Of a stretch of DNA of 64,000 nucleotides, positions 2-53,396 are shown in pieces (the stretch's first letter is position 1; each line of letters starts with the position of its first letter). This stretch comes from Patescibacteria group bacterium (GTDB taxonomy: Bacteria; Patescibacteriota; Patescibacteriia; UBA2196): assembly GCA_028748975.1 (NCBI GenBank), contig JAQTPI010000004.1:14734-78733 (forward strand). Reading direction: 5' to 3'. The notes beneath the pieces are model-generated. The model was not told the origin of the DNA and searched no databases. It saw nothing but the letters and a program-made list of their open reading frames with translations. The position numbers and the translations under genes were made by a program.

Positions 2-649
2 GGAAATCAGCTCTTTGCCGGCACCCAGGCTGGCTTGTTCGTCTCCACTGATGACGGCGTTTCCTGGACAGCGGTTCCCGGCATCAGCTGGGACACTTCG
101 GTCAGAGCACTGGCGGTTAGTGGCAAGAATATTTTCCTCGGAACATGGGGAAAAGGATTGTTCCTCTCCACTGACAGTGGCACAACCTGGAGCAAGAATG
201 CCACAACTGGTTTGCCAACTGATGAATATGGAAGTGCTTTCATTATTTCTCTATTTGTCACGGACGACGGATATCTGTTGGCTGGCGCGTTCCATAACGG
301 TATCTGGCGCCGGGCACTCTCCGAGATGATTGAAACCTCGGTGGAGGAACCGGATCAGCCAGGTCAGCCAGAAGTTTCTTCGCCCACTGCTTTCCAGCTG
401 GCGCAGAACTTTCCCAACCCGTTCAATCCGACCACGACTATTGTCTACTCCATTCCCAAATCCAGCAGTGTCAGACTTTCTGTGTTTGACGCCTCTGGTC
501 GGGAAGTAGCAGTGCTCGTGAATGCTCGACAGAATGCCGGGGAATACCGCGCCACCTTCAATGGCGCCAATCTGCCGGCTGGCGTGTACTTCTACCGCCT
601 GCAGGCCGATAATTTCATTCAAACAAAAAAGATGTCTTACCTTAAATGA
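2..649 (+). CDS. 3' fragment of a secreted BNR/Asp-box repeat protein with a Por/T9SS-type C-terminal sorting domain. The gene is 5'-truncated by the window.
   Basis: The open frame enters from the window start (the track begins it at a TTG at 35). Repeated S-x-D-x-G-x-(T/S)-W motifs (STDDGVSW, STDSGTTW) are present. The C-terminal about 80 aa (FPNPFNPTTTIVYSIP...VYFYRL) matches the T9SS/Por C-terminal domain pattern. GC is about 55%, well above the window average. Confidence 0.6.
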   Translation, partial: GNQLFAGTQAGLFVSTDDGVSWTAVPGISWDTSVRALAVSGKNIFLGTWGKGLFLSTDSGTTWSKNATTGLPTDEYGSAFIISLFVTDDGYLLAGAFHNGIWRRALSEMIETSVEEPDQPGQPEVSSPTAFQLAQNFPNPFNPTTTIVYSIPKSSSVRLSVFDASGREVAVLVNARQNAGEYRATFNGANLPAGVYFYRLQADNFIQTKKMSYLK

Positions 650-3769: not shown

Positions 3770-4004
3770 TTTGCTTTCCTCCTTCCTTGTTTGGTTTTGA
3801 ATGAGCTTTTTGTTTATTTTTGGCTAAAATTAGCCATTTTAGTAAAATCAGTAGTACTTCATATTGTATAAGTGTGTTTTTTTAGATTTTCGTTACACTT
3901 GACTTTTTTCTTTACTCCAATTATACATCTATTTTATGATTTCTGTCAAGTTGGATTAAATGATATAATATAGATATAATACTTTATCCACAAAAAATTA
4001 AAGA

Positions 4005-4065: not shown

Positions 4066-4088
4066 CCCTCTCCTTGTAAAGGAGAGGG
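4066..4088. repeat. GC-rich hairpin element of family B (ccctctcctt-gta-aaggagaggg), 14 nt upstream of the giant-gene ATG.
   Basis: A near-identical 45-bp copy lies at 31351..31400. The element contains AAGGAG / GGGGGA, which could act as a Shine-Dalgarno for 4102. Confidence 0.6.
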
Positions 4089-4101: not shown

Positions 4102-7100
4102 ATGAAAATTAAAAGATATAAAATTTTATTGGTCGGAGTGATTTTAATTTTAATCGCCGGTGGTTTTTTTGTCATCCAAAAATCCGGCCAGGAAGCCGAA
4201 GCGCAGGGGCTCTTGCCGCTTAGCCCGCCGACCAATGTGCAAAAAAATTATGCCACCACCGCCCTGATTGATTGGAGTTGGAGCGCGCCAGTATCCGGCG
4301 GCCTGCCGATTGATTATTACAAAGTCTACACTGGCAGCGGTGGCTTCATCTCCGATGTCACCGGCACCAACTATACGCAACCCGGGCTTAATCCCAGCAC
4401 GCAATATTCCATTAAGGTTATGAGCTGTAAATATGGCAGTGACCCGACCTGCACCGGCCCATATTATGCCAGCACTTTTTCCAGCACGGCTTATGGCTAT
4501 ACCAAAGCCAACACTCCCAGTAATCTGACTGTTTCTCCATCCGCGGATTGCTTGGCTGATAATTACGGAGCCAGCGGGGAGTGCCAATTGACTTGGAGCT
4601 GGAGCGCGAATGACAACTCGGCGGGCACAAATTATTATTATTCAACAGATGAAGGTGCGGGCGCGTGGACAACCAGTTTGAGCTATACAGAAACAATCAG
4701 TTTTGACAGTTGCCGTACGCATACCGCGGGCAGCACGGCGCATACTTTTTACGTGAAAGCCAAGAATGGAGAAGGTGAAGAAACTGACACGACAAGTTTA
4801 AGCAAGACGGAATATAATGTGTGTGATTGGTTGGAAGATTTTGTTTTAAGTCATATTCCTCCTTATGCCAACCAATTTCGCGCTACCTGGACTCCCTCTC
4901 CAAATATTGAGATTCGAGCAGCATTAAATGGCGGTAATTTTCAGACAATAACAAACAATGGAACATTTATGGCTGGACCAGATGGGGTTTGGGCAAATGC
5001 AAGAAATTGGGTGGATTTTCAATGGCATTATGTTGGTGAAGCGTGGCCTCCTAATATAATAATAACCAAAGAAATAAAAGCCCTTCTTCCTCAAGTCGCT
5101 TCAGTTTCTTGTTCCGGCGCTACCACAAATTCTTTGACAGTGACAGCAGAGGGTGGGGGACTGGGTTTTCCAAACCTTTTTACTCTTCTAAGTGGAGTAA
5201 AAATGTCAAAGGCCGTGGTCTATGGAACAGATGATGATGTTGGGACGTATAGTAGTGGCTACCCAACATCAATACCTTTGACTTGGACGGTTTCCAATCT
5301 TTCTCCCAACACTTCCTATTCTTTTAAATTTATAAGCTATAACCAAGAAGGCACGGCAAACTGGGAAACAGAAGCTTTAACTGCCGGGAGCTGTCGGACG
5401 GCCGCGGCGGTTTATCCTCAATGCGGAACAACAACATATAGCCCGGCGCCGCCAACTTGGACCCACAGCAGCGTGCTGGTTTCCATCCCCTGCACGGAAG
5501 AGGGCGGGCCTGGCTGCTCCAAATCAACCTACACCTTGAGCCGTTCAAGCAATGGCAGCGGCACCATTGTTATTAGTGATATTGTCGGCAACACGACCGA
5601 GTGCCCCTACAACGTCACCAACATTGATAAAATTGCGCCAACAGTGAATTCTTTTACAGTTGACGATCATGCTTCTGATTTTACCAGCTCTGACACTGGG
5701 CCGGTGATTGACTGGACCGTGGCTGATTCTGGCGGGTCAGGACTGAAACAGGTGGAGGTTTGGCGCAAAACCGCTGGCGGAGATTGGATACTGATTTATA
5801 CCACCACTGATGTTTCCGGCAATGGCCCGACCAGCGGTTCTTTTACTGACTCGGTTGATTGTCTGCCTTCCCACCAACCCTACACCTATGGCATTCATGT
5901 TTTGGATAATGCCAATAATATCGGTTATGAAAATAATCCCATCGCGGTGACCCTTTCAAATTGCGGCGGGACGCCAACTTGCGGCAGTAATGACAATGGC
6001 GAAGGCGATTTGTTGCAGGCCACCTGCGAGAACGCGCCGATTTTTGGCAAATGGAATTATGCTTCTGACGACGCGACAGGCATGTGCTGGAAAAAAGACC
6101 GCGACGACCCCTATCTTTGCTGCGGTGACGACTCGGGTGAAAATTGGGATTATTTCCGCGAATTTTTTGGCAGTTTTGGCAGTTATTCCACCGATGAGAA
6201 TGACAATGCTTGCTGTAATAATGCTTCTGACTGCGTCTTTAATCACACCTGCTATGATGGTGATGCGAATGGCGCCAGTTTTGAATCCGCTTCCTGCATG
6301 AGCGGCCAAAGATATTGCGGCGGACCCAATGTTTATACTTGGGAAACCGACGCTGATTACAATTTTGCCGTCTGCCAATGTTTGCAAGGTTCTGCCGACC
6401 GCTGGAATGAAAGCGGCTGGTTTGGCGGCAACCAAATTAATTGGAGCATTGGTGGTTATTCGCAAGACCGTTGCTGCGGCGATGATGCTGGAGAAGTTTT
6501 TGCCAACGGTGTTTGTACCACTGGCGCGGCTCTGCCGGATTTGGTGGTGGAAAGCGTGACGCCGCCGACAGGCCTGATTTGCATGGGCAGAAGCGCCACA
6601 TTTTCCGCCGTGATTAAAAACACCGGCAATGCTTCAACCGGCGCGGGGTTTGCCAACCAGATTACTTTGGTGGACACGGGCTCGTGCTTGGCCAATTCTA
6701 CCGCGCTCACGGCGAGCGAAAGCAAAAATATTTCCTGCGCCATTACGCCGAGCGCGGCTGGAATTAAAACCGTGATGTCGCAGGCAGATTATGACGATGC
6801 CATTTCCGAATCCAATGAAGACAATAATGGCCGAGACACCACCGCCACAATTTTTGCCACGCCAAACACGCCCACGGGTTTGACAGCCACCGGCATTGGC
6901 GCCACGGACATCACTTGGGACTGGGACAACATGAGCGGCGCCACTTCTTATATAATTTTATTAAACGGCATTCCGGTTGACACGGTAACCAGCAGCCAAT
7001 ACATTGCCCAGGATCTTTGGGGCGCGGCTGATTATACCATCACAGTTCAAAGTTACAACGGTTGTGGTGTCAGCAGCGGAGCGCAACACACAGTCACCAG

Positions 7101-10308: not shown

Positions 10309-10313
10309 CGATA

Positions 10314-10348
10314 GCATTAAAGCATTAAAGCATTAAAGCATTAAAGCA
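10314..10348. repeat. Tandem octamer microsatellite (GCATTAAA/CATTAAAG) x4, immediately after the stop codon.
   Basis: Direct reading of the sequence. The same octamer family recurs at other gene ends (14044, 20505) and, as the reverse complement TTTTAATG, just upstream of start codons (12100, 20575, 23590, 37040). Confidence 0.85.
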
Positions 10349-10374
10349 ATAGTTTTTGTAATAAAATTTTTTAG

Positions 10375-10414
10375 GCGGTTTTTGGCTAATCTTAGCCAAA
10401 AACCGCCTTTTTCG
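10375..10414 (+). terminator. Rho-independent terminator of the giant gene.
   Basis: Perfect hairpin ggcggtttttggctaa-tc-ttagccaaaaaccgcc, followed by ttttt. Confidence 0.85.
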
Positions 10415-10433
10415 TATATTAAAAGTTATCCAC

Positions 10434-10462
10434 TTGACAAATTTTCAAAAATGCGCTATACT
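10434..10462 (+). promoter_or_regulatory. Sigma-70-like promoter TTGACA-17-TATACT (copy 1 of a thrice-repeated promoter module).
   Basis: ttgacaaattttcaaaaatgcgctatactta is nearly identical to the copies at 11173 and 30304. It is followed by an about 90-nt leader containing the hairpin cttcaTAAAcgaag and the SD aaggagg. Confidence 0.6.
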
Positions 10463-10549
10463 TAAGGTAGCTGAAAGAAGCTAAAAAACAACCAAAAAAC
10501 ATACAAAAAAGCCCGCCTTCATAAACGAAGTCGAGGCAAGGAGGATGTC

Positions 10550-11038
10550 ATGAAACAGCTACTTTTTCTCGCGGCAATGATCGTATTTCTGGTCTACGCT
10601 TTCGCGCCGGGACAGACCCAGGAATTGAACAAGAATGGGTTCAGGCTGGAAAAGGACATTTTGGTCGACGGAGTCTTTGAAAATGACTTTGTCGCCACAG
10701 CCTTGTCCTTTTCGGTCCCGGCCAATGTGGACACCGCGATCATTGATCTTCAGGGGCACAGCATTGTGTCCTTGATGCGTCCGCCCGCGTATTCCTACGC
10801 GGCCGGAATCAGCGTGGCCTGCGCCAACGACGAGACCGTGATCATTGTCAAAAATGCCACGGTACGCAATTTTGACGCCGGCTTTGCTTTCCAAGGCGGG
10901 CAGATTATCCTGAACAACGTCACAGTTCAGGGAAATCGCATACCCCTGGTGGCCAACCGCGCCAGCGTCAAAATGACGGCAGTCACCATGCCGGCCAATG
11001 TGGAGATCCACAACGGCGGGCAGGCGCTGCTCCAGTAG
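10550..11038 (+). CDS. Secreted hypothetical protein (162 aa) with a signal peptide and beta-helix-like NxTVxN repeats.
   Basis: Preceded by an SD (aaggagg) and the promoter above. It has a hydrophobic N-terminus. It was preferred over the antisense ORF 10559..11050 because of its regulatory context. GC-rich. Confidence 0.65.
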   Translation: MKQLLFLAAMIVFLVYAFAPGQTQELNKNGFRLEKDILVDGVFENDFVATALSFSVPANVDTAIIDLQGHSIVSLMRPPAYSYAAGISVACANDETVIIVKNATVRNFDAGFAFQGGQIILNNVTVQGNRIPLVANRASVKMTAVTMPANVEIHNGGQALLQ

Positions 11039-11057
11039 CGGCCAAGCCAAACAAGTG

Positions 11058-11092
11058 CCGGTCCGATGATTACATCTCGGACCGGTTTTTTT
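11058..11092 (+). terminator. Rho-independent terminator.
   Basis: Hairpin ccggtccga...tcggaccgg followed by ttttttt. Confidence 0.85.
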
Positions 11093-11172
11093 ATTTGAAT
11101 ATAATATTAAGAGACGATTTGATGTTTATCTAACCACCTATTTATACCCTAAAATTATTTATTTTTTAGCCC

Positions 11173-11201
11173 TTGACAAGTTTCCAAAAATGCGCTATAC
11201 T
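11173..11201 (+). promoter_or_regulatory. Promoter module copy 2 (TTGACA-17-TATACT), with the same leader as copy 1.
   Basis: ttgacaagtttccaaaaatgcgctatactta. The downstream leader is about 90% identical to that of 10550 and ends in caaggaggaaagacc ATG. Confidence 0.6.
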
Positions 11202-11285
11202 TACGATAGCTGAAAGAAGCTAAAAAACATACATAAACCAAAAAGCCCGCCTTCGTAAACGAAGTCGAGGCAAGGAGGAAAGACC

Positions 11286-11888
11286 ATGAAAAAGTCTTTG
11301 ATCGCAATCGTAGCGGTTGCAACTTTATTCTGCAGCTGCGTGGTGGCACAGGCAAAAGAAGCGACCAGCTACCATCACCTGGAAGGCACCAGTGAGATCG
11401 GTTTTTATGTGGTGCCGCTAACCGACAATATTTTTGACCTGATCGGATCGAACCTGGAGAGTGCCAGGGTTTGGGACAGTGGCCAGCAGAAGTATGTGGA
11501 GCTGGACACCACGGGGTTGAAATATTACGCCCGCCACGGCGCCGGATTTATCATCAAGGTGAAAAATCCACAGGAGCTGGAAGTGGTGGGCGAACCGGTT
11601 TCCACCAGCGACATCAAATTACTGACGGGCTGGAATTTCGTCACCAACACCACGGGAAGCTTTTACAATTATTTGGAAAAAGATTGTAAAGTGATCGCGC
11701 TGTGGATTTATACCGACGACGGGTACAAACCAGTCTCCGTGCAAGATTTTGAACTGGGAGACGGGACTCCGTTCTGGGTTTGTGCCCGGAAACCAGGGAA
11801 TCTCAAGCTGAAAAATTCTCAAAAAGAACCGGACATAACCACGGTTTTTACGAGGAATTTGACAGCTACCCCGCCGCCGATTCAATAA
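11286..11888 (+). CDS. Secreted hypothetical protein (200 aa) with a signal peptide.
   Basis: Preceded by an SD and the promoter module. Hydrophobic N-terminus (IAIVAVATLFCSCVVAQA). GC-rich. Confidence 0.65.
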   Translation: MKKSLIAIVAVATLFCSCVVAQAKEATSYHHLEGTSEIGFYVVPLTDNIFDLIGSNLESARVWDSGQQKYVELDTTGLKYYARHGAGFIIKVKNPQELEVVGEPVSTSDIKLLTGWNFVTNTTGSFYNYLEKDCKVIALWIYTDDGYKPVSVQDFELGDGTPFWVCARKPGNLKLKNSQKEPDITTVFTRNLTATPPPIQ

Positions 11889-11906
11889 CAAGCCTTCTTC
11901 GGCAAG

Positions 11907-11933
11907 CCTCGACATTGTGTCGAGGTTTTTTTA
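11907..11933 (+). terminator. Rho-independent terminator.
   Basis: Hairpin cctcgacattgtgtcgagg followed by ttttttt. Confidence 0.85.
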
Positions 11934-12039
11934 TTTGGGCCTAGCGGCCTCCTACGAATGTACGAATTCTACCAAGATACTAATAATAAAAAACGAAATG
12001 ACAAAATGATTTTATTTCCCTATATCCTTATTTCTTTAT

Positions 12040-12132
12040 TTTCTGTTCCCCTTATTACTTATTACTTATTACTTATTACTAGTTACTTATTACCCGCTTC
12101 TAATGTTTTTATGCTTTAATGTTTTAATGTTT
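12040..12132. repeat. Microsatellite block: (TTATTAC)n / TTATTACTAGTTACTTATTAC, then (TTTTAATG)n running into the annotated start region.
   Basis: Direct reading. These are reverse complements of the GTAATAAG / CATTAAAG families seen after other genes. Confidence 0.8.
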
Positions 12133-12153
12133 TTATGGTATAATAAAATAGAT

Positions 12154-14043
12154 ATGCACCACAGAAAAATCTTACTGACTTTTCTGTTTTTAGCCGTTCT
12201 GATGATTGGCGGATTTTTGGCGTCAACAAAAGCGGCCTGGGCCGGCACTGGTAAAATCGTGGGCGATAAATATAACCTGCCCTATCCGCGCATCGGCGTG
12301 TTTCTTTGGGCCGGCACCACGGAATGGTTCGCGCAAAAAGGAATTGATTTGGTGGCGGCGAGCCCGGGCGTGGACATTGAGGGAGTAAAAAAATTAAGTC
12401 CGAAAGTTTTAGTCAGCCACACCAATGACATCAATAAATTATGCGGCGACGATCGGCCGGAAGAATGGTATTATCATGACGCCGATGGCAATCGTGTTTC
12501 CTACTGGGGCGGCTATCTTTGTAATTTTAATTATCAGCCTTTCCGTGAATTCGTCGGCAATACTTTTGCCGGCATGGTGGGCGGCGCCGATTTCGTCACC
12601 ACCGATGGGCTGTGGACCATGCCTGGCCGGGCAGAAATTTTACAGACGGTTCGAAGCCGGATTGGCGACACGCCTTTTATGGTCAATGGCAATGGCGGCT
12701 ATGAACAAGATAAAAGCATGTATGAATATTACAATGGCAGTTTTTTGGAAGATGGCGGCAATTTCAACAGCAATTGGGATTCAGCTTTTGGCACCTATGA
12801 AGACATGATGAATTATGCCCGCCAGCCGCACATCATCGTCATTGACGGCACCCCGACCAACTGGAGCTTGCCCAACATGACTGATGATTTCAAATTGATG
12901 CGCTTTGGCCTTGGCACGACGCTTCTTGGCGACGGCTATTTTTCTTACGAAGTCGGAATTAATAATCATTTTTATATCGGCTATTTTGACGAGTATGATT
13001 TGGATTTGGGCTATCCCAAAGGCGCGCCGCAGTGCATCAAAAACGAAGGCCGCTGGGGTTATGAAAAACGCTGCGTTTTCGTGAGGTTTTTTGACAAGGG
13101 CGTTTCCATTTTGAATGTCAAAGGCAAATCCGAATCAATCAGTGATAATGATTTAAAAAGCTTGCCCGGTTATGCTGGCCCGTATTATCGCTTTCGGGGC
13201 GGGCAGGACACGGTTTGGAATAATGGACAGCTTTTTACCAGTTTGAATTTGGACGGCCAGAAAGAATTAACCAACGAGCAGTACGAGCATTATAAAATTT
13301 GGGGTGACGCCATCATTCTTTTAAAAGAACCGAAAGTGGTGGTGGCGGACATTATTATTGATGACCACCCGCTGGTCACCTCGCCGGCTAACAAACAAAC
13401 AGAACTGAAAGGTGCGGCCTGGGAAATTGTCAAACCCGGTAAAGGCGATAAGTTTTGGCGGCTTTATAGTTCGGAATTGGGAGAAAGTCCGGCATCTTAC
13501 GGCGCGATTTCCGCCAGTAAAAACGCGGAAGCAATTTTTCGGCCAAAGATTGGCGTGCCGGGCCGCTACCGCGTCTCTGAATGGCATGGCAATGATTATG
13601 CCGAGAGTGAAACAACCAGCGCCATTTATGAAATAAATTATAAAGGCGGAGTTAAAGTTGAATCAATTAACCAATCCCAAAGTTATGGCCAATGGAATTT
13701 TTTAGGCGAGTTTTATTTCACAGAGGGAGACAGCGGCTATGTCAAATTGAATAATAATGGCCAAGGAGTTTTGGTAGCGGACGCGGTGAAATTTGAATAT
13801 CAAGACGCGGTGTTGATGGCTGACTTTAACTGTGACGGGCAGATTAATATCGCTGATTTCGGAATTTTATTGTCGCACTGGGGGCAAAAAGAAAATAACG
13901 GTTCGCTGAAAAAATACAAACATCCCCTGTGTCAGGAAGCAAAAAGTTTGGATTTAGTGTTAGATAATACAATTAACATCAAAGATTTGGGCGCCCTGCT
14001 TTCCTGCTGGGGCAATCCGGATAATGAGACGTGTTATCAGTAA
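12154..14043 (+). CDS. Secreted protein (about 629 aa) with a C-terminal pair of dockerin-like Ca-binding repeats.
   Basis: The likely true start is ATG 12154 (MHHRKILLTFLFLAVLMIGG); the track ORF 12103 begins inside the TTTTAATG repeats. The C-terminus carries DFNCDGQINIADFGILLSHWG ... NTINIKDLGALLSCWG, which resembles dockerin type-I duplicated repeats. Confidence 0.65.
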   Translation: MHHRKILLTFLFLAVLMIGGFLASTKAAWAGTGKIVGDKYNLPYPRIGVFLWAGTTEWFAQKGIDLVAASPGVDIEGVKKLSPKVLVSHTNDINKLCGDDRPEEWYYHDADGNRVSYWGGYLCNFNYQPFREFVGNTFAGMVGGADFVTTDGLWTMPGRAEILQTVRSRIGDTPFMVNGNGGYEQDKSMYEYYNGSFLEDGGNFNSNWDSAFGTYEDMMNYARQPHIIVIDGTPTNWSLPNMTDDFKLMRFGLGTTLLGDGYFSYEVGINNHFYIGYFDEYDLDLGYPKGAPQCIKNEGRWGYEKRCVFVRFFDKGVSILNVKGKSESISDNDLKSLPGYAGPYYRFRGGQDTVWNNGQLFTSLNLDGQKELTNEQYEHYKIWGDAIILLKEPKVVVADIIIDDHPLVTSPANKQTELKGAAWEIVKPGKGDKFWRLYSSELGESPASYGAISASKNAEAIFRPKIGVPGRYRVSEWHGNDYAESETTSAIYEINYKGGVKVESINQSQSYGQWNFLGEFYFTEGDSGYVKLNNNGQGVLVADAVKFEYQDAVLMADFNCDGQINIADFGILLSHWGQKENNGSLKKYKHPLCQEAKSLDLVLDNTINIKDLGALLSCWGNPDNETCYQ

Positions 14044-14118
14044 GCATTAAAGCAATAAAGCATTAAAGCAATAAAGCAATAAAGCAATAAAGCAATAAAG
14101 CAATAAAGCAATAAAGCA
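14044..14118. repeat. Tandem octamer microsatellite (CAATAAAG/CATTAAAG) x9.
   Basis: Direct reading between the stop at 14043 and the ATG at 14129. Confidence 0.9.
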
Positions 14119-14128
14119 AACAGAAACC

Positions 14129-16216
14129 ATGAAAGAAAAATCTGAAAATAAAACATTATCTATTGCCTTTGGAATAATTTTGGGCGTGCTTTTATTTTTC
14201 TTTGGCAAGCTGTGTCTGGCCGCTGTTTTTCCCGGCATTGATTTGCCGACTTTTGAAGAAAGGAGAGCGGCTTACATTAAAGACCAGGGGCAAAGCGTCA
14301 GCGGCGATTTTCCCTACTCCATGAGAATACCGCTTTTTGCCTGGCTGGAAACACCAGAGCAAAACAAAGGACGAATTAGCGAGGAAATTGGATACATGAC
14401 CAGTATGGGCGATGATTGCAGTAGTGGACAGCAAGATTGGAGCAATTGCTGGTGGACCGGCGACCACCCCAACACCATTGTCGCCAGTTATGTTTATTAC
14501 AAATATTATCAGGATAAAAAAGTTATTTATGATTCAGACGCGGCCAGAATCAGAGAAAAATTATTTTCCATCGCCGAAATGGGCACCAAAAAGGACTTGG
14601 CCAAAACTTTTTGGGGCTGCGACGGCAATTATTTTTATCGTTATTTTGTGACTGGATATCTTTACGCCGTCAGAATTGGCGGGCTGGGCAAGGCGTATTT
14701 TGATAACGTGCCAACCTGTGCCAATAAGTTCACTTACCAGGGCCGAAAATACACTAGTGGAAATTATTACGAGGCAAAACAATTTTATAGCGATTATCTG
14801 GGGTACACCATGGATTCCTTGCTGAAAAGTGGAGACAACGAGGATTTTGGCAATTACTATTATTCCCAAATTCAATCCATTGCTGCTGTTTATGATTTTA
14901 GTCCGGACGCGCAACTGAAAAGAAAGGCGAAAATGCTCTTGGATTGGCTGAACTTCACTTATGCTGTCGGTTTTAGCGTCGGACATTTTGCCGACGGCCA
15001 TGGCCGCACCTATTTTGAATATCACGGGCGAGTGATGGATAATTTTCCTTTTTCCACTTTTTTCTATCTTGATAAACACCTGGCCGAACAGCTGCAAATG
15101 TGGTCCAATTCCCAAGAATTTTATATTTCCGCTTACCGCTATCCGGAGGTGATGAGAAAAATTTTTGAAAAAATAAACGGTCCGAATATGTCGGAAACCG
15201 ACGGTGATTATTATCGGATTGTGCGCGGCAACGATCCGCGGCTGGGCTGTGAAAAAACAGATCGGGGAGAGAAATGCTATCGCTATGAATATGTGACGCC
15301 GTATTATAATCTGGGCGGTTCTGGTTTGGGCACGGGCTGGGAGTTGAATATCAAAAGCGAGACATTGCCGTTTCGGGTTTGGATAAATTCTTGCAACAAG
15401 GTTTATGAAAGAGGCTGCAACGGGCAGCTGACTTGGGGCTGGAGCGAACTGTTTAGAACAGGAGCTTTGGGTTACCAATATAAAAACGCCATTTTCTATT
15501 ATGGCGGCGGTAACATCCAGCAAGAGATTGGCAACGGTTCTTGGTCAGAGACGGCGGAATATGATTATAAAGATGGCTGGGGGGATGAAAGAAAGTGGCA
15601 GTTTTTTAGAAAAGAAGGCGTGGCTGTGGCGGCGGAAGTCAGAGGCAATGGCCCTTCGGCGCTGGAAGTGGTAAAACTGGGCGTGGATTATCCGGATTTC
15701 AACTCTTTCATTGGGGCGGTGAAGAGAAATTCTAAATTAAGCTGGGATGGTTTTACCACCAGTAAGGGCTTCACCATTACCAAAGGATTTGTTGATTATG
15801 GTTCGGAATATACCAAATTGCCTTTTGACCGGCTGGAAGTTTGGGAGGGACATGTTAATAAAAATGATGAGAAAAAAATTGTTGATTGGAATAACAATGT
15901 GATGACAGTGACACAAGGCAATTTAACGTGCAAATATAATTTTAACAGCTGGACTTTTTCTGGTAATGGCTGCGCGGGCCAGGGCGCCGCTTACAAGGCC
16001 GATTTCAACTGCGACGGGGTGATAAATATTTCCGATTTTGGAATTTTGCTGTCGCACTGGGGGCAGACGGAGAAAATTAAAGAGTATCAAAACGCCCAGT
16101 GCGGCGTGGCAAGAAGCTTGGATTTGGCGGCGAATAATCGAATTGACACCAGTGATTTAAGCGCCTTGCTTTCCTGTTGGGGCACGCCGGAGGAGGAAGT
16201 GTGCATGGAGAAGTGA
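14129..16216 (+). CDS. Secreted protein (695 aa) with the same C-terminal dockerin-like module as 12154..14043.
   Basis: It has an N-terminal signal anchor. The C-terminus DFNCDGVINISDFGILLSHWGQ ... NRIDTSDLSALLSCWGTPEEEVC is near-identical to the module of its neighbour. Confidence 0.7.
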   Translation: MKEKSENKTLSIAFGIILGVLLFFFGKLCLAAVFPGIDLPTFEERRAAYIKDQGQSVSGDFPYSMRIPLFAWLETPEQNKGRISEEIGYMTSMGDDCSSGQQDWSNCWWTGDHPNTIVASYVYYKYYQDKKVIYDSDAARIREKLFSIAEMGTKKDLAKTFWGCDGNYFYRYFVTGYLYAVRIGGLGKAYFDNVPTCANKFTYQGRKYTSGNYYEAKQFYSDYLGYTMDSLLKSGDNEDFGNYYYSQIQSIAAVYDFSPDAQLKRKAKMLLDWLNFTYAVGFSVGHFADGHGRTYFEYHGRVMDNFPFSTFFYLDKHLAEQLQMWSNSQEFYISAYRYPEVMRKIFEKINGPNMSETDGDYYRIVRGNDPRLGCEKTDRGEKCYRYEYVTPYYNLGGSGLGTGWELNIKSETLPFRVWINSCNKVYERGCNGQLTWGWSELFRTGALGYQYKNAIFYYGGGNIQQEIGNGSWSETAEYDYKDGWGDERKWQFFRKEGVAVAAEVRGNGPSALEVVKLGVDYPDFNSFIGAVKRNSKLSWDGFTTSKGFTITKGFVDYGSEYTKLPFDRLEVWEGHVNKNDEKKIVDWNNNVMTVTQGNLTCKYNFNSWTFSGNGCAGQGAAYKADFNCDGVINISDFGILLSHWGQTEKIKEYQNAQCGVARSLDLAANNRIDTSDLSALLSCWGTPEEEVCMEK

Positions 16217-19903: not shown

Positions 19904-20054
19904 TGGTGGAGCCGGCAGGATTCGAACCTGCGACCTTTCAAACTCGTAGAATTGGCCAATTTTTCCCTCACGCGCGCTTGGGAAAATTTGGGCAATTTTT
20001 ACCCTCTTTTTTAAGGAGAGAAGTTTGAAAACTCTCCCAACTGAGCTACGGCCC
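19904..20054 (-). tRNA. tRNA with Ala-type identity elements (G3:U70, D-arm TAGCTCAGTTGGGAGAG, encoded CCA), interrupted by an about 85-nt insertion between the two halves of the anticodon stem; intron-containing or disrupted.
   Basis: 5' half GGGGCCGTAGCTCAGTTGGGAGAGTTTTCAAAC, and 3' half GTTTGAAAGGTCGCAGGTTCGAATCCTGCCGGCTCCACCA. The halves TTCAAAC/GTTTGAA pair across an insert that has its own hairpins (ttttccc...gggaaaa; the AATTGGCCAATT palindrome). Confidence 0.55.
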
Positions 20055-20208
20055 CGATTCAACACGAGAACAAAATCGTAAAATAAAGTGACTTTTTTAT
20101 TTTAACAAGGTCTAAAAAACTTGTCAAATGTGGATAAGTAATATAAAATATAATAAGTAACTACCAATAAATAATAAGGGAAAAAATGAATAATCCCAAT
20201 GTTATTTT

Positions 20209-20502
20209 ATGCTAACACAAGAAGAAGTAAAACATATTGCGGATTTGGCGCGACTGGAACTGGTGCCGGAAGAGATTGAAAAATACCAAACACAGTTGGG
20301 GCGGATTTTGGATTATATAAATAAATTGGCGGAAGCCAAAACAGAAGGGGTGTCGACGGCGGATGGGGGAACGACGGATTTGGAAAACGTGTGGAGGACA
20401 GATGAAAAATCAGAAATTGGAAATCAGAAATCAGGTACGGATTTAATAAAAATGGCAGGAGAGGTGGAAGGAGGACAGGTGAAGGTGAAGAGTGTGTTTT
20501 AA
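20209..20502 (+). CDS. gatC: Asp/Glu-tRNA amidotransferase subunit C.
   Basis: MLTQEEVKHIADLARLELVPEEIEKYQTQLGRILDYINKL matches the GatC N-terminal pattern, and the gene sits immediately upstream of gatA. Confidence 0.85.
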   Translation: MLTQEEVKHIADLARLELVPEEIEKYQTQLGRILDYINKLAEAKTEGVSTADGGTTDLENVWRTDEKSEIGNQKSGTDLIKMAGEVEGGQVKVKSVF

Positions 20503-20611
20503 ACCATGAAAGCATGAAAACATAAAAGCATTAAAGCAAAAATAGTAATTAAAAATAAAGGTTAGTTGTTTTTGTTTTCATGTTTTAATGCTCTAATATT
20601 TTAATGTTGGT

Positions 20612-22030
20612 ATGATAAAAGAATTACATAATAAATTAATAAACAAAGAAATTTCGGCGGTGGAACTCACGACCGAGTATTTGGCGCGGGCTAAAAAATC
20701 AGATTTGAACGCTTTTATTACGATTACGGAAAGTGAAGCACTGGAACAAGCGGCGGTAGTGGACGAAGCGATTGAGAGAGGCGAAGAAATTCCGCTTTTG
20801 GCCGGCATACCGGCTTCCATTAAGGATTTATTAATGACAGAAGGCGTGCGCACGACCGCGGCTTCCAAAATTTTAGAAAATTATATCGCGCCTTATGACG
20901 CCACAGTGGTGAAAAAATTAAAAGAAAACGGTCTGGTCATGATTGGCAAAAACAACTGCGATGAATTTGCCATGGGGTCTTCCACCGAAAATTCAGCTTT
21001 TGGTCCGACTAAAAATCCTTATGACAAAACGCGAGTTGCGGGCGGCACTTCCGGCGGCTCCGCCGCCGCCGTAGCTAGTGATTTGTCCATCTATTCTATT
21101 GGCACGGACACTGGTGGCTCGGTGCGCCAACCAGCTGCTTTTTGTGGCGTGGTGGGAATGAAACCGACTTATGGGGCAGTTTCTCGTTTTGGGCTTATTG
21201 CTGACGCGTCATCACTGGATCAAGTCGGAGTGATTGCCAAAAGCGTGGAAGACGCGGAAATTGTTTTTAATGCTATTAAAGGGAAAGATGAGAGGGACGC
21301 GACTTCGACATTAAAACATGAAAACATTAAAACATTAAAACAAAACAATGGATTAAGGGGCATTAAAATTGGAATACCGAAAGAATATTTCAGCGAGGGT
21401 ATTGATCAGGAAGTGGGCGAGGCAATAGCTGATTTTATTAAACGGGCCAAAGATTTGGGCGCGGAAATTGTGGAAATAAGTTTGCCGCATATGGAGTATG
21501 CTTTGACCGTTTATTATATTATTCAGCCGGCCGAAGCCAGCGCGAATTTGGCACGTTATGACGGAGTTAGATACGGTAAATTAACAATTAACAATAAACA
21601 ATCAACAAATAACCAATTAATTGATATTTACAAAAAGACGCGGGCGGAGTTTTTGGGGCCGGAAGTGAAACGTAGAATAATGCTCGGGACATACGCTCTA
21701 TCTGCCGGCTACTATGATGCTTATTACAAAAAAGCGCAGCAGGTCCGGACTTTAATTCGAGAAGATTTTAAGAAAGCATTTGAGGAAGTGAATCTGATTT
21801 TCGCGCCAACCGCGCCGCATCCGGCTTGGAAAATTGGCGAAAAAATTGACGATCCCTTGGCAATGTATTTGGAAGATATTTTCACAGTGCCGGTTAATAT
21901 CGCAGGTTTGCCAGCACTGTCAGTGCCGGCCGGTATCACTAAAGCGGGGCTGCCAATTGGCGCGCAGATTATTGGTGGTTGGGGAAAAGAGGAAGAAATA
22001 TTTCAGGCGGGGAAAACGTTAGAGTTATAG
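20612..22030 (+). CDS. gatA: Glutamyl-tRNA(Gln) amidotransferase subunit A (amidase signature family).
   Basis: Gly/Ser-rich amidase signature GGSSGGSAAAVAS...GTDTGGSVRQPAAFCGVVGMKPTYG, and a Ser-cisSer-Lys triad context. Length is 472 aa. It contains short in-frame AT-rich repeat insertions (STLKHENIKTLKQNN; TINNKQSTNNQ). Confidence 0.95.
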   Translation: MIKELHNKLINKEISAVELTTEYLARAKKSDLNAFITITESEALEQAAVVDEAIERGEEIPLLAGIPASIKDLLMTEGVRTTAASKILENYIAPYDATVVKKLKENGLVMIGKNNCDEFAMGSSTENSAFGPTKNPYDKTRVAGGTSGGSAAAVASDLSIYSIGTDTGGSVRQPAAFCGVVGMKPTYGAVSRFGLIADASSLDQVGVIAKSVEDAEIVFNAIKGKDERDATSTLKHENIKTLKQNNGLRGIKIGIPKEYFSEGIDQEVGEAIADFIKRAKDLGAEIVEISLPHMEYALTVYYIIQPAEASANLARYDGVRYGKLTINNKQSTNNQLIDIYKKTRAEFLGPEVKRRIMLGTYALSAGYYDAYYKKAQQVRTLIREDFKKAFEEVNLIFAPTAPHPAWKIGEKIDDPLAMYLEDIFTVPVNIAGLPALSVPAGITKAGLPIGAQIIGGWGKEEEIFQAGKTLEL

Positions 22031-23261: not shown

Positions 23262-23610
23262 TTCTTTTGCCACCTTTTTATAAAGGTGGCGCCAAAATCG
23301 CCGCTGTAAAAAAGTAGTTTTTATGCCCCTTTCTTTGGACAAAGACTTTTTTCCGTTCTTTTTTTAGAAAAAAGAACCAAAAAAGCGCCGCCAGCAAAAA
23401 AGCTTCCACAAAATCGGCTGCGTCCTCGCTAAACCCGTTAACTCCTTGTTCCGCCTCGTCCTGATGGACTTCGGCGGAACTGCGTCAGACAGAAGCGGGT
23501 TTTTCTCCGCCCCGGGCGGAGAACCGCTCCGACTTAGCTCGATTTTGTCGGGAACCTTTTTTGAAGCGGCAGTCGCAACGATGACATAATTGTTTTAATG
23601 TTTTAATGAC
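23262..23610. repeat. Long non-coding leader upstream of lgt; homologous to the leader upstream of ftsW (36800..37072).
   Basis: Blocks are shared in order: ttgccacctttttaNtaaaaggtggcgccaaaa.cgccgctgtaaaaaag ; gttaactcct ; cgtcagacagaagc ; ggcggcagtcgcRacgatRa ; ttttaatgttttaatg ATG. Confidence 0.6.
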
Positions 23611-24687
23611 TTGATGTTTTTACATAATTATATTCCCAATCCAATTTTACTTGATTTAGGATTTTATCAAATCCGCTGGTATGGCCTTATTTTAGCGTTG
23701 GCCGTGGCTGGCGGATTTTTTATTCTTGCCCGCCTTCGCCGCTACGGTCAAGCCGGCGGCTATGGCGGGCAAGTTTCTGATCTTTTTACCAAAGACAATT
23801 TTTTTAATCTATTATTTTGGGTTGCGATTTGGGGAATTATCGGCGGAAGGTTGGTTCATGTTTTAACTTTTTTTGATTATTACTGGCAGCGGCCGCTGCA
23901 GATACTCGCAATTTGGAACGGGGGAATCGCTTTCTATGGCGTGTTTGCTGGTGGGTTAATTGCGGCAGGGGTTTTGACGCGCCGTGTCATCCTGAGCGAA
24001 GCCCGAATCCGCCAGCTGGCGGAGAGGGCGAAGCCGAAGGATTCCTCATACTTTCCATATGATAAAGGCGAAGGCCCGCCCGCCATGACTTCGTCAAGGC
24101 GAAGTCGGGCGGGGATTCATCGCTCCGCTCGGAATGACAAGAAAAACAAAACCATTATTCATCATTCATTATTCATTATTCTTGATGCCCTCGTCGTCGG
24201 CTTGGCTTTCGGCCAATTCATCGGCCGGTGGGGAAATTGGTTTAATCAGGAGCTTTTTGGAGGGCCAACGAATTTGCCTTGGGGAATTCCGATTGATATT
24301 TGGCATAGGCCAGTCGGCTTGGAAAATTTTACTTACTTTCATCCAATTTTTTTGTATGAGAGTCTGTTTTCTTTGGTTTTGTTTTTGGGGTTGTATTTTT
24401 TATACAAAAAAATACATTGTCATTTCGGGCCGAGACCCGGAATCCAGGAGAGTGGATCCCGGATCGGAGTCCGGGATGACAAGGCGGGTTTTGTTTTCTC
24501 CGCTTTTTTAATCTTCCATTCCACTGCCCGGTTTTTTTTGGAGTTTTTGCGCCTTGACGCGCAGCCGGAGTTTTTGGGTCTGTGCCTTTTCCAGTGGGTG
24601 GCGATAATAGAATTTATTTTGGGGTGGGTTGTGTATTTTTATGTTAGGGTGTGGTATAATAAAAGTAAGCTACGAATTTACGAATAA
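23611..24687 (+). CDS. lgt: Prolipoprotein diacylglyceryl transferase carrying two in-frame palindromic-element insertions.
   Basis: Lgt hallmarks are present (WYGLILALAVAGG, GGRLVHVL, WNGGIAFYGVFAGG, GRWGNWFNQELFGG, FLRLDAQPEF). They are interrupted by an about 50-aa insert (VILSEARIRQ...NDKKNKT) and an about 20-aa insert (GPRPGIQESGSRIGVRDDKAGF), encoded by family-A elements. Confidence 0.85.
   Translation: MMFLHNYIPNPILLDLGFYQIRWYGLILALAVAGGFFILARLRRYGQAGGYGGQVSDLFTKDNFFNLLFWVAIWGIIGGRLVHVLTFFDYYWQRPLQILAIWNGGIAFYGVFAGGLIAAGVLTRRVILSEARIRQLAERAKPKDSSYFPYDKGEGPPAMTSSRRSRAGIHRSARNDKKNKTIIHHSLFIILDALVVGLAFGQFIGRWGNWFNQELFGGPTNLPWGIPIDIWHRPVGLENFTYFHPIFLYESLFSLVLFLGLYFLYKKIHCHFGPRPGIQESGSRIGVRDDKAGFVFSAFLIFHSTARFFLEFLRLDAQPEFLGLCLFQWVAIIEFILGWVVYFYVRVWYNKSKLRIYE
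23984..24141. repeat. Composite of two family-A palindromic elements inserted in-frame in lgt.
   Basis: gtcatcctgagcgaagcc...ccgccagctggcgg...cgaaggattcct and ...ggattcatcgctccgctcggaatgacaa. No stop codons are present in the lgt frame. Confidence 0.75.
24426..24486. repeat. Family-A palindromic element inserted in-frame in lgt (second site).
   Basis: gggccgagacccggaatccaggagagtggatcccggatcggagtccgggatgacaa. Confidence 0.7.
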
Positions 24688-30132: not shown

Positions 30133-30251
30133 CCCCTCCTTTCGAAGGAGGGGTGCCGAGTGAAACGAGGCGGGGTGGTTGTGGTAAAAATAATCACACA
30201 ACCCCTCCGGGTTTCGCTCCGCTCAACCCACCTCCCCTTCGAAAGGGGAGG
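30133..30251. repeat. GC-rich structured block bounded by two family-B hairpins (cccctcc-tttcgaa-ggagggg and cctcccc-ttcgaaa-ggggagg).
   Basis: Direct reading. It is related to the hairpins at 4066, 31373 and 36160. Confidence 0.6.
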
Positions 30252-30303
30252 ATAAAATCACAAAACAATTCTATCAAAATAAGTATAGCAAATCAAATTT
30301 TAT

Positions 30304-30332
30304 TTGACAAGTGCCAAAAAATTTGCTATACT
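30304..30332 (+). promoter_or_regulatory. Promoter module copy 3 (TTGACA-17-TATACT).
   Basis: ttgacaagtgccaaaaaatttgctatactta has the same architecture as the modules at 10434 and 11173. Confidence 0.55.
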
Positions 30333-30375: not shown

Positions 30376-30438
30376 ATGAAAATTAAGGTTAAAAATGCGA
30401 CTCCAGCTGTTTATCACCTGACTGTCCGCAAACGATGA
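30376..30438 (+). CDS. Candidate 20-aa peptide (MKIKVKNATPAVYHLTVRKR), or the body of a small RNA, followed by a short GC hairpin and T7.
   Basis: ATG 38 nt after the -10 element; stop at 30436..30438; then gacgc-ttagc-gcgtt, cgg and ttttttt. Confidence 0.3.
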   Translation: MKIKVKNATPAVYHLTVRKR

Positions 30439-30657
30439 CCTGACGCTTAGCGCGTTCGGTTTTTTTATGCTTAAAATAGCCAACAACAAGATTTCCGAGC
30501 TTTTACCTGTTGTTGCCAAAAAACTACCTGTCAAAAATAGGTTAAAATTACTTTGGAAAAAATGGCGGCAATTTCCACCTTGGCAACGCCACCGCCGTAT
30601 TTTGTGGCCATATTAAAAACTAAAACCCCGCCTTACGGCGGGATTTTTTATATTTTT

Positions 30658-31297: not shown

Positions 31298-31447
31298 ATG
31301 ATAAATAACAGATAGACACAGATGTAAAACAGATAGACACAGATGCACAGATGCTGACGACCTCACCCCCGACCCTCTCCTTATAAAGGAGAGGGGGACG
31401 GAATCTGTGTATTTGTGTAAATCTGTAAAAAATCTGTGATAATTTGT
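31298..31447 (-). promoter_or_regulatory. Structured infC-rpmI intergenic leader, possibly an L20 autoregulatory site. It holds CACAGAT heptamer arrays in inverted orientation around the family-B hairpin ccctctcctt-ataa-aggagaggg.
   Basis: A 21-bp direct repeat (acagatagacacagatg x2) occurs at 31308..31345. The hairpin is at 31373..31395, and atctgtg x4 at 31402..31435. Confidence 0.35.
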
Positions 31448-35274: not shown

Positions 35275-36762
35275 ATGACAATCACTAAAAAAATCCATTT
35301 TATCGGCATTGGCGGGACGGCCATGGCAGCACTCGCCGTGGCTTTTAAACGCGCCGGATTTATTGTGACCGGTTCGGACTCGGGTAATATTTTTCCGCCG
35401 ATGAGCACGCATTTAAAAAAAAATGGAATTAAATATGGCTTGGGGTTTAAAGAAAAAAATTTAGGCCAGCCGAACGAAGTGGTTCTTGGCAATGCCCATG
35501 TCAGTAATTTAAATCCGGAAATCGCGATGGCTAAGAAAAGAGGATTGCCAATCATTCACTTTCCGCGGTTGATAGAAAAATATCTGATTAAGAAAAATTC
35601 AGTGGTAGTGGCAGGAACTTATGGTAAAACAACCATCACGGCCATGGCAGCCTGGCTTTTGGAAAAGGCGGGTAAAAATCCAAATTATATGCTCGGCGGC
35701 ATTCCGATTGATTTGGAAAACGGCGCACGATTAATAAAATCTGATTGGTCAGTCACCGAAGGCGATGAATATCCGGCAGCCTCTCCCTGGGACAGCGCGC
35801 CAAAATTTAAATATTATCATCCCAAATTTTTAATTTTGACTTCGGCGGAATGGGATCACATGGATGTTTATAAAACTAAAGAAAGTTATTTGGAGGTTTT
35901 TCGGAAATTGGTAGCAAGCGTGCCAGAAAATGGATTGATTGTGGCAAAGGCGGGCGGAGAGAATTTGGCTGGTGTTTTGAAGGGGGCGAAGTGTAAAATA
36001 ATTTATTATAGCAATCAGAAATTAGAAAACAGAAATCAGGATGAAAAATTATATTATATTAGTGGTGTGGAGGTAATTGGTGATAAGACTAAATTTATAG
36101 TAAAGAAACGCCTATCGGCGAAAATAAATAACCACCCCCGCTCCGTTGCTACGGAGCGACCCCTCCTTGAAAAGGAGGGGATGACCACCACCGTTGGCGA
36201 GTTTGAGACAAAACTTTTAGGCGAATTTAATTTGGAAAATTGGTGTGCGGCAGTGGCGCTGGCGATAGAGTTGAGAATTCCATTGAAGAAAATTCAGGCC
36301 GGAGTGAAAAGTTTTTCCGGAGTGAAAAGGAGATTGGAGATTCGCGGAGTGAAAAAAGGCGTGACCATAATTGATGATTTCGCGCATAATCCGGCGAAAG
36401 CGCGGCAGTCGGTTTTGGCCTTGCGCCGGCATTTTCCCAAAAATAAAATTTACGTAATTTTTGAACCAAATCGCGGTGGCCGATCGGAAAAATGTCTATC
36501 GGGATATAATAAAGTTTTTGCCGGTATAACAAAAGTTTTTATTTCAAAATTAACCGAATATCCGCCCAAAAAGGGAGTGAAAGATGTTTCGGGTAAGGAA
36601 TTGGTAAAGTATTTGAAAAAGACGCACGGAGGCGTAACTTATGAACCAGAAACGAAGGAACTAATAAACAAGTTGAAGAAAATTGCTAAAAGCGGCGATG
36701 TGATCGCGTTTTTGGGGTCGAGGAATTTTGGAGGTGTACTTGAACGGTTGTTGTCATCCTGA
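35275..36762 (+). CDS. Mur ligase family protein (MurC/Mpl-like) with an in-frame hairpin-element insertion; its stop codon lies inside a family-A element.
   Basis: KKIHFIGIGGTAMAALAVAF N-terminus, GTYGKTTITAM P-loop, DEYPAASP, and a C-terminal Mur ligase domain. ATG 35275 is preferred over the TTG track start at 35266. Confidence 0.8.
   Translation: MTITKKIHFIGIGGTAMAALAVAFKRAGFIVTGSDSGNIFPPMSTHLKKNGIKYGLGFKEKNLGQPNEVVLGNAHVSNLNPEIAMAKKRGLPIIHFPRLIEKYLIKKNSVVVAGTYGKTTITAMAAWLLEKAGKNPNYMLGGIPIDLENGARLIKSDWSVTEGDEYPAASPWDSAPKFKYYHPKFLILTSAEWDHMDVYKTKESYLEVFRKLVASVPENGLIVAKAGGENLAGVLKGAKCKIIYYSNQKLENRNQDEKLYYISGVEVIGDKTKFIVKKRLSAKINNHPRSVATERPLLEKEGMTTTVGEFETKLLGEFNLENWCAAVALAIELRIPLKKIQAGVKSFSGVKRRLEIRGVKKGVTIIDDFAHNPAKARQSVLALRRHFPKNKIYVIFEPNRGGRSEKCLSGYNKVFAGITKVFISKLTEYPPKKGVKDVSGKELVKYLKKTHGGVTYEPETKELINKLKKIAKSGDVIAFLGSRNFGGVLERLLSS
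36125..36185. repeat. Two GC hairpins (cgctccgt-tgct-acggagcg and family-B cccctcctt-gaaa-aggagggg) inserted in-frame in the Mur ligase gene (encoding NHPRSVATERPLLEKEGM).
   Basis: Direct reading. The reading frame is maintained. Confidence 0.65.
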
Positions 36763-36800: not shown

Positions 36801-37072
36801 TTCTTGCCACCTTTTTTAGTAAAAGGTGGCGCCAAAAAGCGCCGCTGTAAAAAAGTTTTGACAAATTCAAGCTCGTCGTCATTAATTTTGTTAACTCCTC
36901 GTTTTGCTCGGTTTGCGCTCAAACCTCGCAAAACTTCGTCAGACAGAAGCAAAATTTTTTCACTGCGGTGAAAACCACTCCTCCTCGCCTCGAATTTATA
37001 CCAAAACTTTTTTAAGGCGGCAGTCGCGACGATAATGTTATTGTTTTTATGTTTTAATACTTTAATGTTTTT
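36800..37072. repeat. Long non-coding leader upstream of ftsW; homologous to the lgt leader (23262..23610).
   Basis: See 23262..23610. It ends in ttttatgttttaatactttaatgttttt ATG. Confidence 0.6.
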
Positions 37073-44984: not shown

Positions 44985-45013
44985 TTGACTTTTTGGTTTT
45001 TTTGCGCTATAAT
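44985..45013 (+). promoter_or_regulatory. Sigma-70 consensus promoter TTGACT-17-TATAAT heading an about 290-nt leader before giant gene 45306.
   Basis: ttgactttttggtttttttgcgctataat. The same architecture is seen at 53368. Confidence 0.6.
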
Positions 45014-45305
45014 TAATATAGAGACAAATTAGGTTTGTTCGCCAAGTCAAAGGGGGCGTCTCGGAAACGCTCAGGTGGGTTGAAAAACCACCACCAATGA
45101 CCTGAAGAGGATCCTGTTTATAGCCTTTGGCTAAGACAGGGTTTCGGAACAAAAAAGTTAATTAAAATCTTGATTTACTGGTGCTTAAAAGCACGAGGCC
45201 ATTTTGTTTAGCCAAAAACGTTTTTAGGAGATGTTTAAGGGCGCTATATATGTATATAATAGAAATAAATAAATAAAAATAAATTAAAATAAAAATAAAT
45301 TCCCC

Positions 45306-53367: not shown

Positions 53368-53396
53368 TTGACTTTTGGTATTTTTCGCGATATAAT
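53368..53396 (+). promoter_or_regulatory. Sigma-70 consensus promoter TTGACT-17-TATAAT heading the leader of the second giant gene.
   Basis: ttgacttttggtatttttcgcgatataat. It parallels 44985. Confidence 0.6.

Follow-up and report, generated by a model that had tools for sequence, protein, structure and literature searches.

Stem-loops and strong Shine-Dalgarno (SD) sequences in the 5′ untranslated region can stabilise bacterial mRNAs, examples being the E. coli ompA leader and the aprE/hbs-type 5′ stem-loops and strong-SD stabilisers of B. subtilis. To our knowledge, almost nothing is known from experiment about gene expression signals in the Patescibacteria (CPR). Putative mobile promoters, as defined by Matus-Garcia, Nijveen and van Passel (NAR 2012), are highly similar upstream regions that stand before non-homologous genes of one genome. 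They are recognised by an identity of at least 80% over at least 50 nt within -150 to -50 of the start codon, together with non-paralogy and absence of overlap, and the majority of families reported so far are pairs whose members are about 92% identical (PMC3575422). Spacers of sigma-70 promoters generally show an AT tract by the -35 box and GC-rich sequence adjoining the -10 box, and a 3-nt "start" element at the transcription start is likewise a general feature (PMC12641261). We read the patescibacterial locus described here as a further, probable case of a known phenomenon, promoter reuse.

Two copies of one promoter and leader

The window analysed is a stretch of 64,000 nt with a GC content of about 43%; it has an intron-containing tRNA and a tmRNA, and it encodes giant surface proteins. 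A promoter and leader of about 115 bp occur in near-identical form before two neighbouring genes for small, apparently secreted proteins: copy A (10434-10549) before gene A and copy B (11173-11285) before gene B. The two are spaced by 739 bp, and between the -35 box and the SD their identity is about 90%. When the alignment is carried on to the ATG (10434-10552 against 11173-11288), 102 of its 121 columns are equal. An earlier reading of the letters alone, made without database searches (the sequence-only reading), had reported near-identical modules before the genes at 10550 and 11286, and the alignment bears this out. The independent Logan assembly contig L001 covers both copies and shows no difference from the window, so that an assembly artefact is unlikely.

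At the 3′ end of the module lies a 38-nt block, AAAAGCCCGCCTTC[A/G]TAAACGAAGTCGAGGCAAGGAGG, which ends in the SD and differs by one base between the copies; shuffled sequences gave 0 matches expected by chance. The copies also share, without any difference, a 21-nt block following the start site, GCTGAAAGAAGCTAAAAAACA, which has no further copy in the window when up to three mismatches are allowed. Comparison of the whole of unit A with the whole of unit B by blastn returned the module as the sole significant match (87.5% over 120 nt), with no DNA similarity of the gene units past ATGAAA. The similarity of the copies breaks off sharply at both module ends.

Copy A is preceded by the terminator of the upstream gene for a 2068-aa surface protein (10373..10413, +), a 16-bp stem followed by a T-run. 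The -35 box follows the end of this terminator at a distance of about 20 bp, thus unit A has its own promoter. Promoter A (TTGACA, a 17-nt spacer, TATACT; 10434..10462, +) is followed by the palindrome TAGCT-GAAAGA-AGCTA (10468..10483, +) at the predicted start site, which was placed by its distance from the -10 box. An unstructured A/C-rich linker (10484..10510, +) comes next, which four substitutions and a 5-nt indel set apart from that of copy B, and then a 27-nt hairpin, GCCCGCCUUCAUAAACGAAGUCGAGGC (10511..10537, +), with a pairing probability of about 1. The hairpin is set 2 nt (AA) before the GGAGG of the SD AAGGAGG (10538..10544, +), itself 5 nt from the ATG at 10550. Promoter B (11173..11201, +) has the same boxes and spacer length, the spacer being equal to that of promoter A at 15 of 17 positions, and palindrome B (11207..11222, +) is the same as that of copy A. 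In hairpin B (11245..11271, +) G replaces A at the loop-closing position, so that the inner stem has 5 bp and is capped by a UAAA loop; the SD AAGGAGG (11272..11278, +) is 7 nt from the ATG at 11286.

The downstream genes

Genes A and B form two monocistronic units, each with its own terminator. Gene A (10550..11038, +) encodes 162 aa and is followed by a terminator read from the sequence, CCGGTCCGA, a 10-nt loop, TCGGACCGG and then T7 (11048..11082, +); the terminator scanner has a loop limit of 8, and this site therefore escaped the scan. Gene B (11286..11888, +) encodes 200 aa, and its terminator (11904..11935, +) was found by the scan. Databases list the products under PHT40_02105 and PHT40_02110, from a 95-kb contig of a MAG named Patescibacteria group bacterium; the GC content, tRNA and tmRNA, giant surface proteins and LigA relatives of the window agree with such a source. 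The annotated frame is coding in both genes. Both proteins have N-termini that resemble signal peptides, read by eye as MKQLLFLAAMIVFLVYAFA/PGQ and MKKSLIAIVAVATLFCSCVVAQA/KEA. The proposal that two independent units for exported-looking products share a duplicated promoter and 5′ UTR is supported.

The genes had also been called unrelated and GC-rich, and on both counts we agree. The two proteins gave a BLASTP E value of 7.7. Their GC content is 0.55 (gene A) and 0.50 (gene B), and their GC3 values (0.72 and 0.61) are the top two in the window, all other genes falling between 0.22 and 0.57. Gene A was compared with 5.8 billion proteins in a word-seeded search, the sole homology search made for it, which returned no homolog but the protein itself, and there was no Pfam match. 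For gene B, HMMER run in full recovered a small number of remote homologs with 30-37% identity. All of these carry a T9SS C-terminal sorting domain that is absent from B, and gene B looks to be a truncated relative of T9SS sorting-domain proteins. AlphaFold run without an alignment gave pLDDT values of 52 and 38 for the two proteins, too poor for a fold search. The atypical composition, together with the truncated-homolog pattern of B, suggests that genes A and B were probably acquired. More broadly, high GC3 and the pattern seen in B point to acquired or fast-evolving genes placed under expression signals of host type.

The promoter half is generic

The promoters of the module are equal to the sigma-70 consensus at 11 of 12 hexamer positions, with a 17-nt spacer. 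The motif TTGACA-N15-GCTATACTTA has 7 sites in the window with up to two mismatches, against 0.01 expected, and the looser form TTGACA-17-TATAMT has 11-12, usually with GC before the -10 box and TTA after it. Consensus sites are thus enriched in the window relative to shuffles, and most continue as TTA-nnn-TAG. They lie upstream of genes of many kinds: a tRNA (30310, -), a tRNA cluster (20127, -), the tmRNA (32579, -), a radical-SAM gene (3949, -), a small gene (43100, -) and two giant collagen-like genes (44985 and 53368, both +). Immediately to the left of the window, contig L035 of this genome carries another consensus site, with the spacer AAAATCTTAAAATGCGC. When 206 promoter-like sites were compared, the spacers resembling that of promoter A formed a continuum in which CPR relatives were included.

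The module promoter shares with housekeeping sigma-70 promoters (PMC12641261) the TTGACA-17-TATAMT frame, the A/T tract after the -35 box, GCGC before the -10 box and a TAG about 7 nt past it. About 11 sites of the window have this pattern. Set against housekeeping promoters the module promoter shows nothing unusual, and the promoter half of the module is generic.

This bears on a site at 30304, which had been taken for a third copy of the promoter, followed by a different leader, a 20-codon ORF and a terminator. A promoter is indeed present (30304..30332, +), face to face with the tRNA promoter (30310-30282, -). The 20-codon ORF, which lacks an SD (30376-30438, +), and a weak terminator followed by T7 (30442-30456, +) are also as described, the whole feature ending at 30466. 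The predicted transcript of about 125 nt is no more structured than shuffles (fold z-score 0.06) and has no Rfam match. Comparison of the copies showed that, downstream of the start site, 30304 shares nothing with A or B. Since it has in common with them only the genome-wide promoter consensus, it is a generic consensus promoter and not a third copy of the module.

The leader

The leader is the part specific to the A/B pair. It is about 80 nt long and runs in the order palindrome, A/C-rich linker, 27-nt hairpin, AA, GGAGG, 5-7 nt, ATG; the linker has 22-27 nt and is always unpaired. The palindrome TAGCT-N6-AGCTA is perfect over its 16 bp and would occupy +1..+16 of the transcript. It could be a 5′-terminal mini-hairpin (4-5 bp, -2.8 kcal/mol) or an operator. 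The hairpin beside the SD is the more stable structure; its energy is -11 to -13 kcal/mol, and its z-scores run from -1.5 to -2.9. The sequence-only reading had predicted a hairpin in the leader, and it forms robustly, with a pairing probability of about 1. Among gene starts of the window that have a strong SD, a stable hairpin abuts the SD only at A and B.

The left arm of the hairpin, CCUUC, is complementary to GGAGG as read from the sequence. We forced this pairing, the sole SD-sequestering alternative tried, and the resulting fold lay 8-9 kcal/mol above the minimum free energy structure; an anti-SD switch is rejected on this basis. On the + strand the hairpin has no U-run behind it, and it is therefore not an attenuator. 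The A/G difference at the loop-closing pair is the only difference in the stem between the two copies and is not compensatory.

The copies differ mainly in the linker and hardly at all in the palindrome and hairpin (Fisher p 0.01-0.03). The conservation of these blocks against the diverged linker hints at selection on them beyond a simple recent duplication. The A-rich linker is, however, the segment most prone to slippage, which could explain its divergence without selection.

Conservation outside the locus

The sequence-only reading had proposed an Rfam/Infernal scan of the leader. At the gathering score, Rfam gave no leader match across the whole window; at E ≤ 10, the locus returned chance-level matches only, none centred on the hairpin, and no family was matched in either search. 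We built a covariance model (R1) and an nhmmer profile from the two leaders. Across the window and the loci of relatives (about 380 kb for R1, and for the profile all loci retrieved at that stage), these found the two copies only, together with matches at the level of architecture that scored at most 26 bits. The leader has no further copy in the window or in about 600 kb from relatives. Exact patterns of the hairpin and 5′ blocks found no true copy in GTDB species genomes, JGI metagenomes or IMG/VR; one viral 19-mer match (L037) was attributed to chance. Phage and plasmid collections gave no module match by blastn.

Relatives anchored on LigA are CPR MAGs with a best LigA identity of 72%. Synteny with them is not kept, so there is no orthologous locus for comparison. 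The upstream regions of three relatives of gene B (L038, L040/L042 and L041) were also inspected, and the leaders that stand before gene B homologs in other genomes are not convincingly related to ours. In L038 the promoter spacer is identical to that of promoter A at 14 of 17 positions and the leader is unrelated. This spacer was rejected as a sign of homology, the null of promoter-like sites placing the match at the top of a continuous consensus distribution. L041 has no similarity to the leader upstream of its gene B relative.

L040/L042, from another organism, resemble the leader in several short collinear stretches. Immediately upstream of the -35 box stands AGTTATCCCC, where copy A has AGTTATCCAC, and the leader contains GAAGCTAAAAACA and a stretch AACAAC...CACAAAAAA. 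A near-copy of the palindrome, GGTAGCTGAAAAAAGC, lies between divergent promoters beside response-regulator genes, and CAAGGAGGATGgCATGAAA is present by a neighbouring gene for 77 aa. In Smith-Waterman alignment the leader similarities score 33-35, marginally more than the best of 414 control leaders (31); the matches are A-rich and were picked post hoc. We regard these similarities as a lead only, suggestive but not conclusive.

Alternative explanations

The palindrome suggests control of transcription, TAGCT-N6-AGCTA being the DNA operator of a dimeric transcription factor and the two genes part of a small co-repressed regulon. It is identical in the two copies, perfectly kept beside the diverged linker, and with the predicted start would sit at a classic repressor position, but duplication alone could explain such identity. 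The two duplicated sites are the only ones in 64 kb, a count of two at one mismatch was reached in 16 of 100 shuffles, and no candidate regulator is linked. The L040 near-copy, placed between divergent promoters and by response-regulator genes, is a single, short, A-rich match noticed post hoc. An operator appears unlikely to us. The leader RNA might instead be a cis-regulatory element whose hairpin and/or 5′ block binds a protein, sRNA or ligand and tunes translation or stability. Such an element would accord with the stable hairpin that each copy has 2 nt ahead of the SD, with an arm complementary to GGAGG and with blocks conserved relative to the linker; yet about half of the leader is unstructured, the z-scores of the hairpin are modest, the anti-SD fold is far less stable, the one hairpin substitution is not compensatory, and neither Rfam nor the relatives and public collections searched hold a match or copy. 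We consider a cis-acting RNA element quite unlikely. The module resembles riboswitches and the cis-regulatory leaders of Rfam in its conserved 5′ UTR and its hairpin near the SD, and differs from them in having no covariance-model match, multi-helix aptamer, expression platform or phylogenetic conservation; with the 27-nt hairpin as its sole structure, a true riboswitch is extremely unlikely. The shared post-transcriptional switch or riboswitch put forward in the sequence-only reading thus finds no positive evidence in a mostly unstructured A/C-rich leader. Judged by conservation in relatives the regulatory-element reading is weakened, though short of strict refutation, since the search gave no orthologous locus. 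Palindrome and hairpin might also act as a clade-specific signal, operator or RNA protein-binding site, that enrols acquired secreted-protein genes in a regulon, the weak L040/L042 matches then being diverged members. We would give this little chance; nothing in the present results supports a shared operator or RNA-binding site.

On the minus strand the hairpin folds at -11.4 and -14.1 kcal/mol in the two copies and is followed by UUUUUU/UUUUU, and the bidirectional terminators found elsewhere in the window have an A-run with a hairpin as their left half. It could accordingly be an intrinsic terminator acting against antisense transcription that leaves genes A and B into the units upstream. 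No minus-strand gene or convincing minus-strand promoter lies downstream, however, the only candidate being a 9/12 match at 12004-11977; the stem has internal mismatches, and a position 2 nt from the SD fits a role in the sense RNA better. Such a terminator seems very improbable. Duplicated promoters are known to arise from repeats that bear promoters (PMC3575422), and the module might have been carried by a MITE, a Correia or REPIN-like element, or phage or plasmid DNA with an outward promoter. But the module has neither terminal inverted repeats nor target-site duplications, occurs in two copies only and has no match in phage, plasmid and viral collections; carriage by a mobile element is highly improbable and largely refuted.

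Probable promoter reuse

The A/B module is best read as a putative mobile promoter, that is, as promoter reuse. Within -150 to -50 of the start codon the pair shows 90.8% identity over 65 nt by blastn, the downstream genes are non-paralogous by the BLASTP comparison given above, and both copies lie between a terminator and a start codon. Like the described families the module consists of highly similar upstream regions before non-homologous genes of one genome, and it is a pair. It differs in that the unit is precisely bounded, from the -35 box to the SD, in that the copies are adjacent, and in that both downstream genes are compositional outliers.

It is probable, in our judgement, that a native expression cassette was copied locally and that the same signals now drive two adjacent, probably acquired genes. 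The cassette would comprise a near-consensus promoter of the sigma-70 type, a leader of about 80 nt and a strong AAGGAGG ribosome-binding site, each gene being transcribed as a monocistronic unit of its own. Strong and probably constitutive transcription would be expected from such a promoter, and the A/C-rich leader with its exposed SD should allow efficient initiation. The two small hairpins would at most be passive, protecting the 5′ end and giving the SD a fixed structural context, rather than sensors. On balance we favour such a passive duplicated cassette.

A stabilising or insulating role of this kind would have an architectural parallel in the 5′-UTR mRNA stabilisers, the module having a stem-loop predicted at or near the 5′ end, single-stranded parts and a second hairpin by a strong SD, upstream of an exported-looking protein that may be abundant. 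There is no sequence relationship to these leaders, and the 5′ stem here is short and weak and lies at the predicted +1.

The organism uses twice a cleanly bounded unit of predicted strong promoter, leader and ribosome-binding site, which is a reasonable candidate part for genetic tools. The locus also exemplifies how foreign or orphan genes may be wired into a host by promoter reuse. The phenomenon is otherwise ordinary, and a new class of regulation would call for more leader copies that show covariation.

The general layout of the leader recurs in other leaders of this genome. The leader of a gene left of the window (L035 2920-3046, -) has a GGCTAAGGTTAGCC hairpin (GGCUAAGGUUAGCC), an A/C-rich linker and a small hairpin UCCGCAAAGCGGA that abuts AAGGAG, and it also contains ATGAAAAAG. 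In the leader of the radical-SAM gene (3915-3767, -) the order is GGCUAAUUUUAGCC, an A/C-rich linker and GGAAGGAGGAAAG; this leader is the best non-self match of R1, at 26 bits.

Intergenic repeats and palindromes

The intergenic regions carry short tandem repeats whose placement follows the direction of the genes. The octamer AGCATTAA/AGCAATAA sits immediately 3′ of stop codons (window positions 10313-10351, 14035-14129, 20495-20549 and 21299-21345, + orientation). Its reverse complement, TTAATGYT, sits immediately 5′ of gene starts (12093-12145, 20562-20620, 23587-23632 and 37031-37083). These octamers (families D2, D8 and D9) are an intergenic repeat system aware of strand. We also observe 7-bp repeats, GTAATAA / TAATAAGTAACTAGTAATAAGTAATAAGG, which supply stop codons in all frames 3′ of genes; they are found on the + strand near 20143, 28972, 38152, 42600 and 52589, and as the reverse complement at about 12040-12090. 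One of these 7-bp repeats is the breakpoint of a contig in Logan, an independent assembly collection.

In the stretch 12103-12160, the mechanically called start of the GHL15/Golvesin gene, at 12103, falls within the octamer repeats. An extended −10 box, TGGTATAAT, lies at 12136-12144 and is followed 11 nt on by the ATG at 12156 (MHHRKILL...). This spacing suggests that the GHL15/Golvesin mRNA would be nearly leaderless.

A palindrome, GGCTAA-NN-TTAGCC, flanked by runs of T and A, recurs between genes both in this genome and in a relative whose LigA is 67% identical. It is located at 3822-3835 and 10384-10397 of the window, at 3004-3017 of L035 (a contig of the same genome, just left of the window) and at 6957-6970 and 14415-14428 of L003, a contig of the relative. 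In one case the palindrome forms the tip of a terminator; all others are within leaders. The palindrome could be a clade-specific motif, either protein-binding or a terminator. We note that in the relative a GC-rich, apparently structured segment of about 120 nt (L003 6775-6900) lies immediately 3′ of ligA and may encode a small RNA.

Perfect palindromic hairpins resembling SD/anti-SD pairs (CCTCCTT-NNN-AAGGAGG and variants) gave seven matches against 1.6 expected, with sites at 4066-4088, 30135-30151, 31376-31392 and 36162-36178. One such hairpin, with a 10-bp stem, is just 5′ of the start of the 2068-aa gene and another is just 5′ of a tRNA.

Promoters, leaders and tRNA genes

Two giant, paralogous collagen-like repeat genes are each preceded by a consensus promoter and then by a non-coding leader of about 300 nt (44985-45305 and 53368-53742). 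Both leaders contain the hairpin GGTGC(TT/C)AAAAGCACGAGG together with CTATATATGTATATA. Neither leader matched a family in the Rfam search of the window at gathering score. We see here a possible ncRNA or conserved structured leader.

At 30282-30332 two consensus promoters stand face to face. Their −35 hexamers (TTGACA / TGTCAA) overlap; one promoter is directed at the tRNA at 30121-30048 (−), the other at a putative short transcript. A 149-nt tRNA match at 19907-20055 (−) heads a cluster of five tRNAs and presumably contains an intron.

A DnaA-box-like element, GTTATCCAC (consensus TTATCCACA), at 10425-10433 adjoins the −35 box of copy A, the promoter-leader module before gene A, and is absent from that place in copy B, the near-identical module before gene B. 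A second such site is upstream of another promoter in the same genome (L035 3085-3094, −), and a variant, TTATCCCC, is upstream of a gene B homolog in another organism (L040 91-100).

T9SS sorting domain

A BNR protein of this Patescibacteria MAG bears a T9SS C-terminal sorting domain (Por_Secre_tail), a domain also carried by the only relatives found for gene B (P0003-P0009). The T9SS-domain observations are at window 35-649, at L035 1518-2924 and in these homologs. The domain is odd in Patescibacteria because the lineage lacks an outer membrane, and its occurrence here suggests that it either came horizontally from bacteria of the FCB type or is put to a different use.
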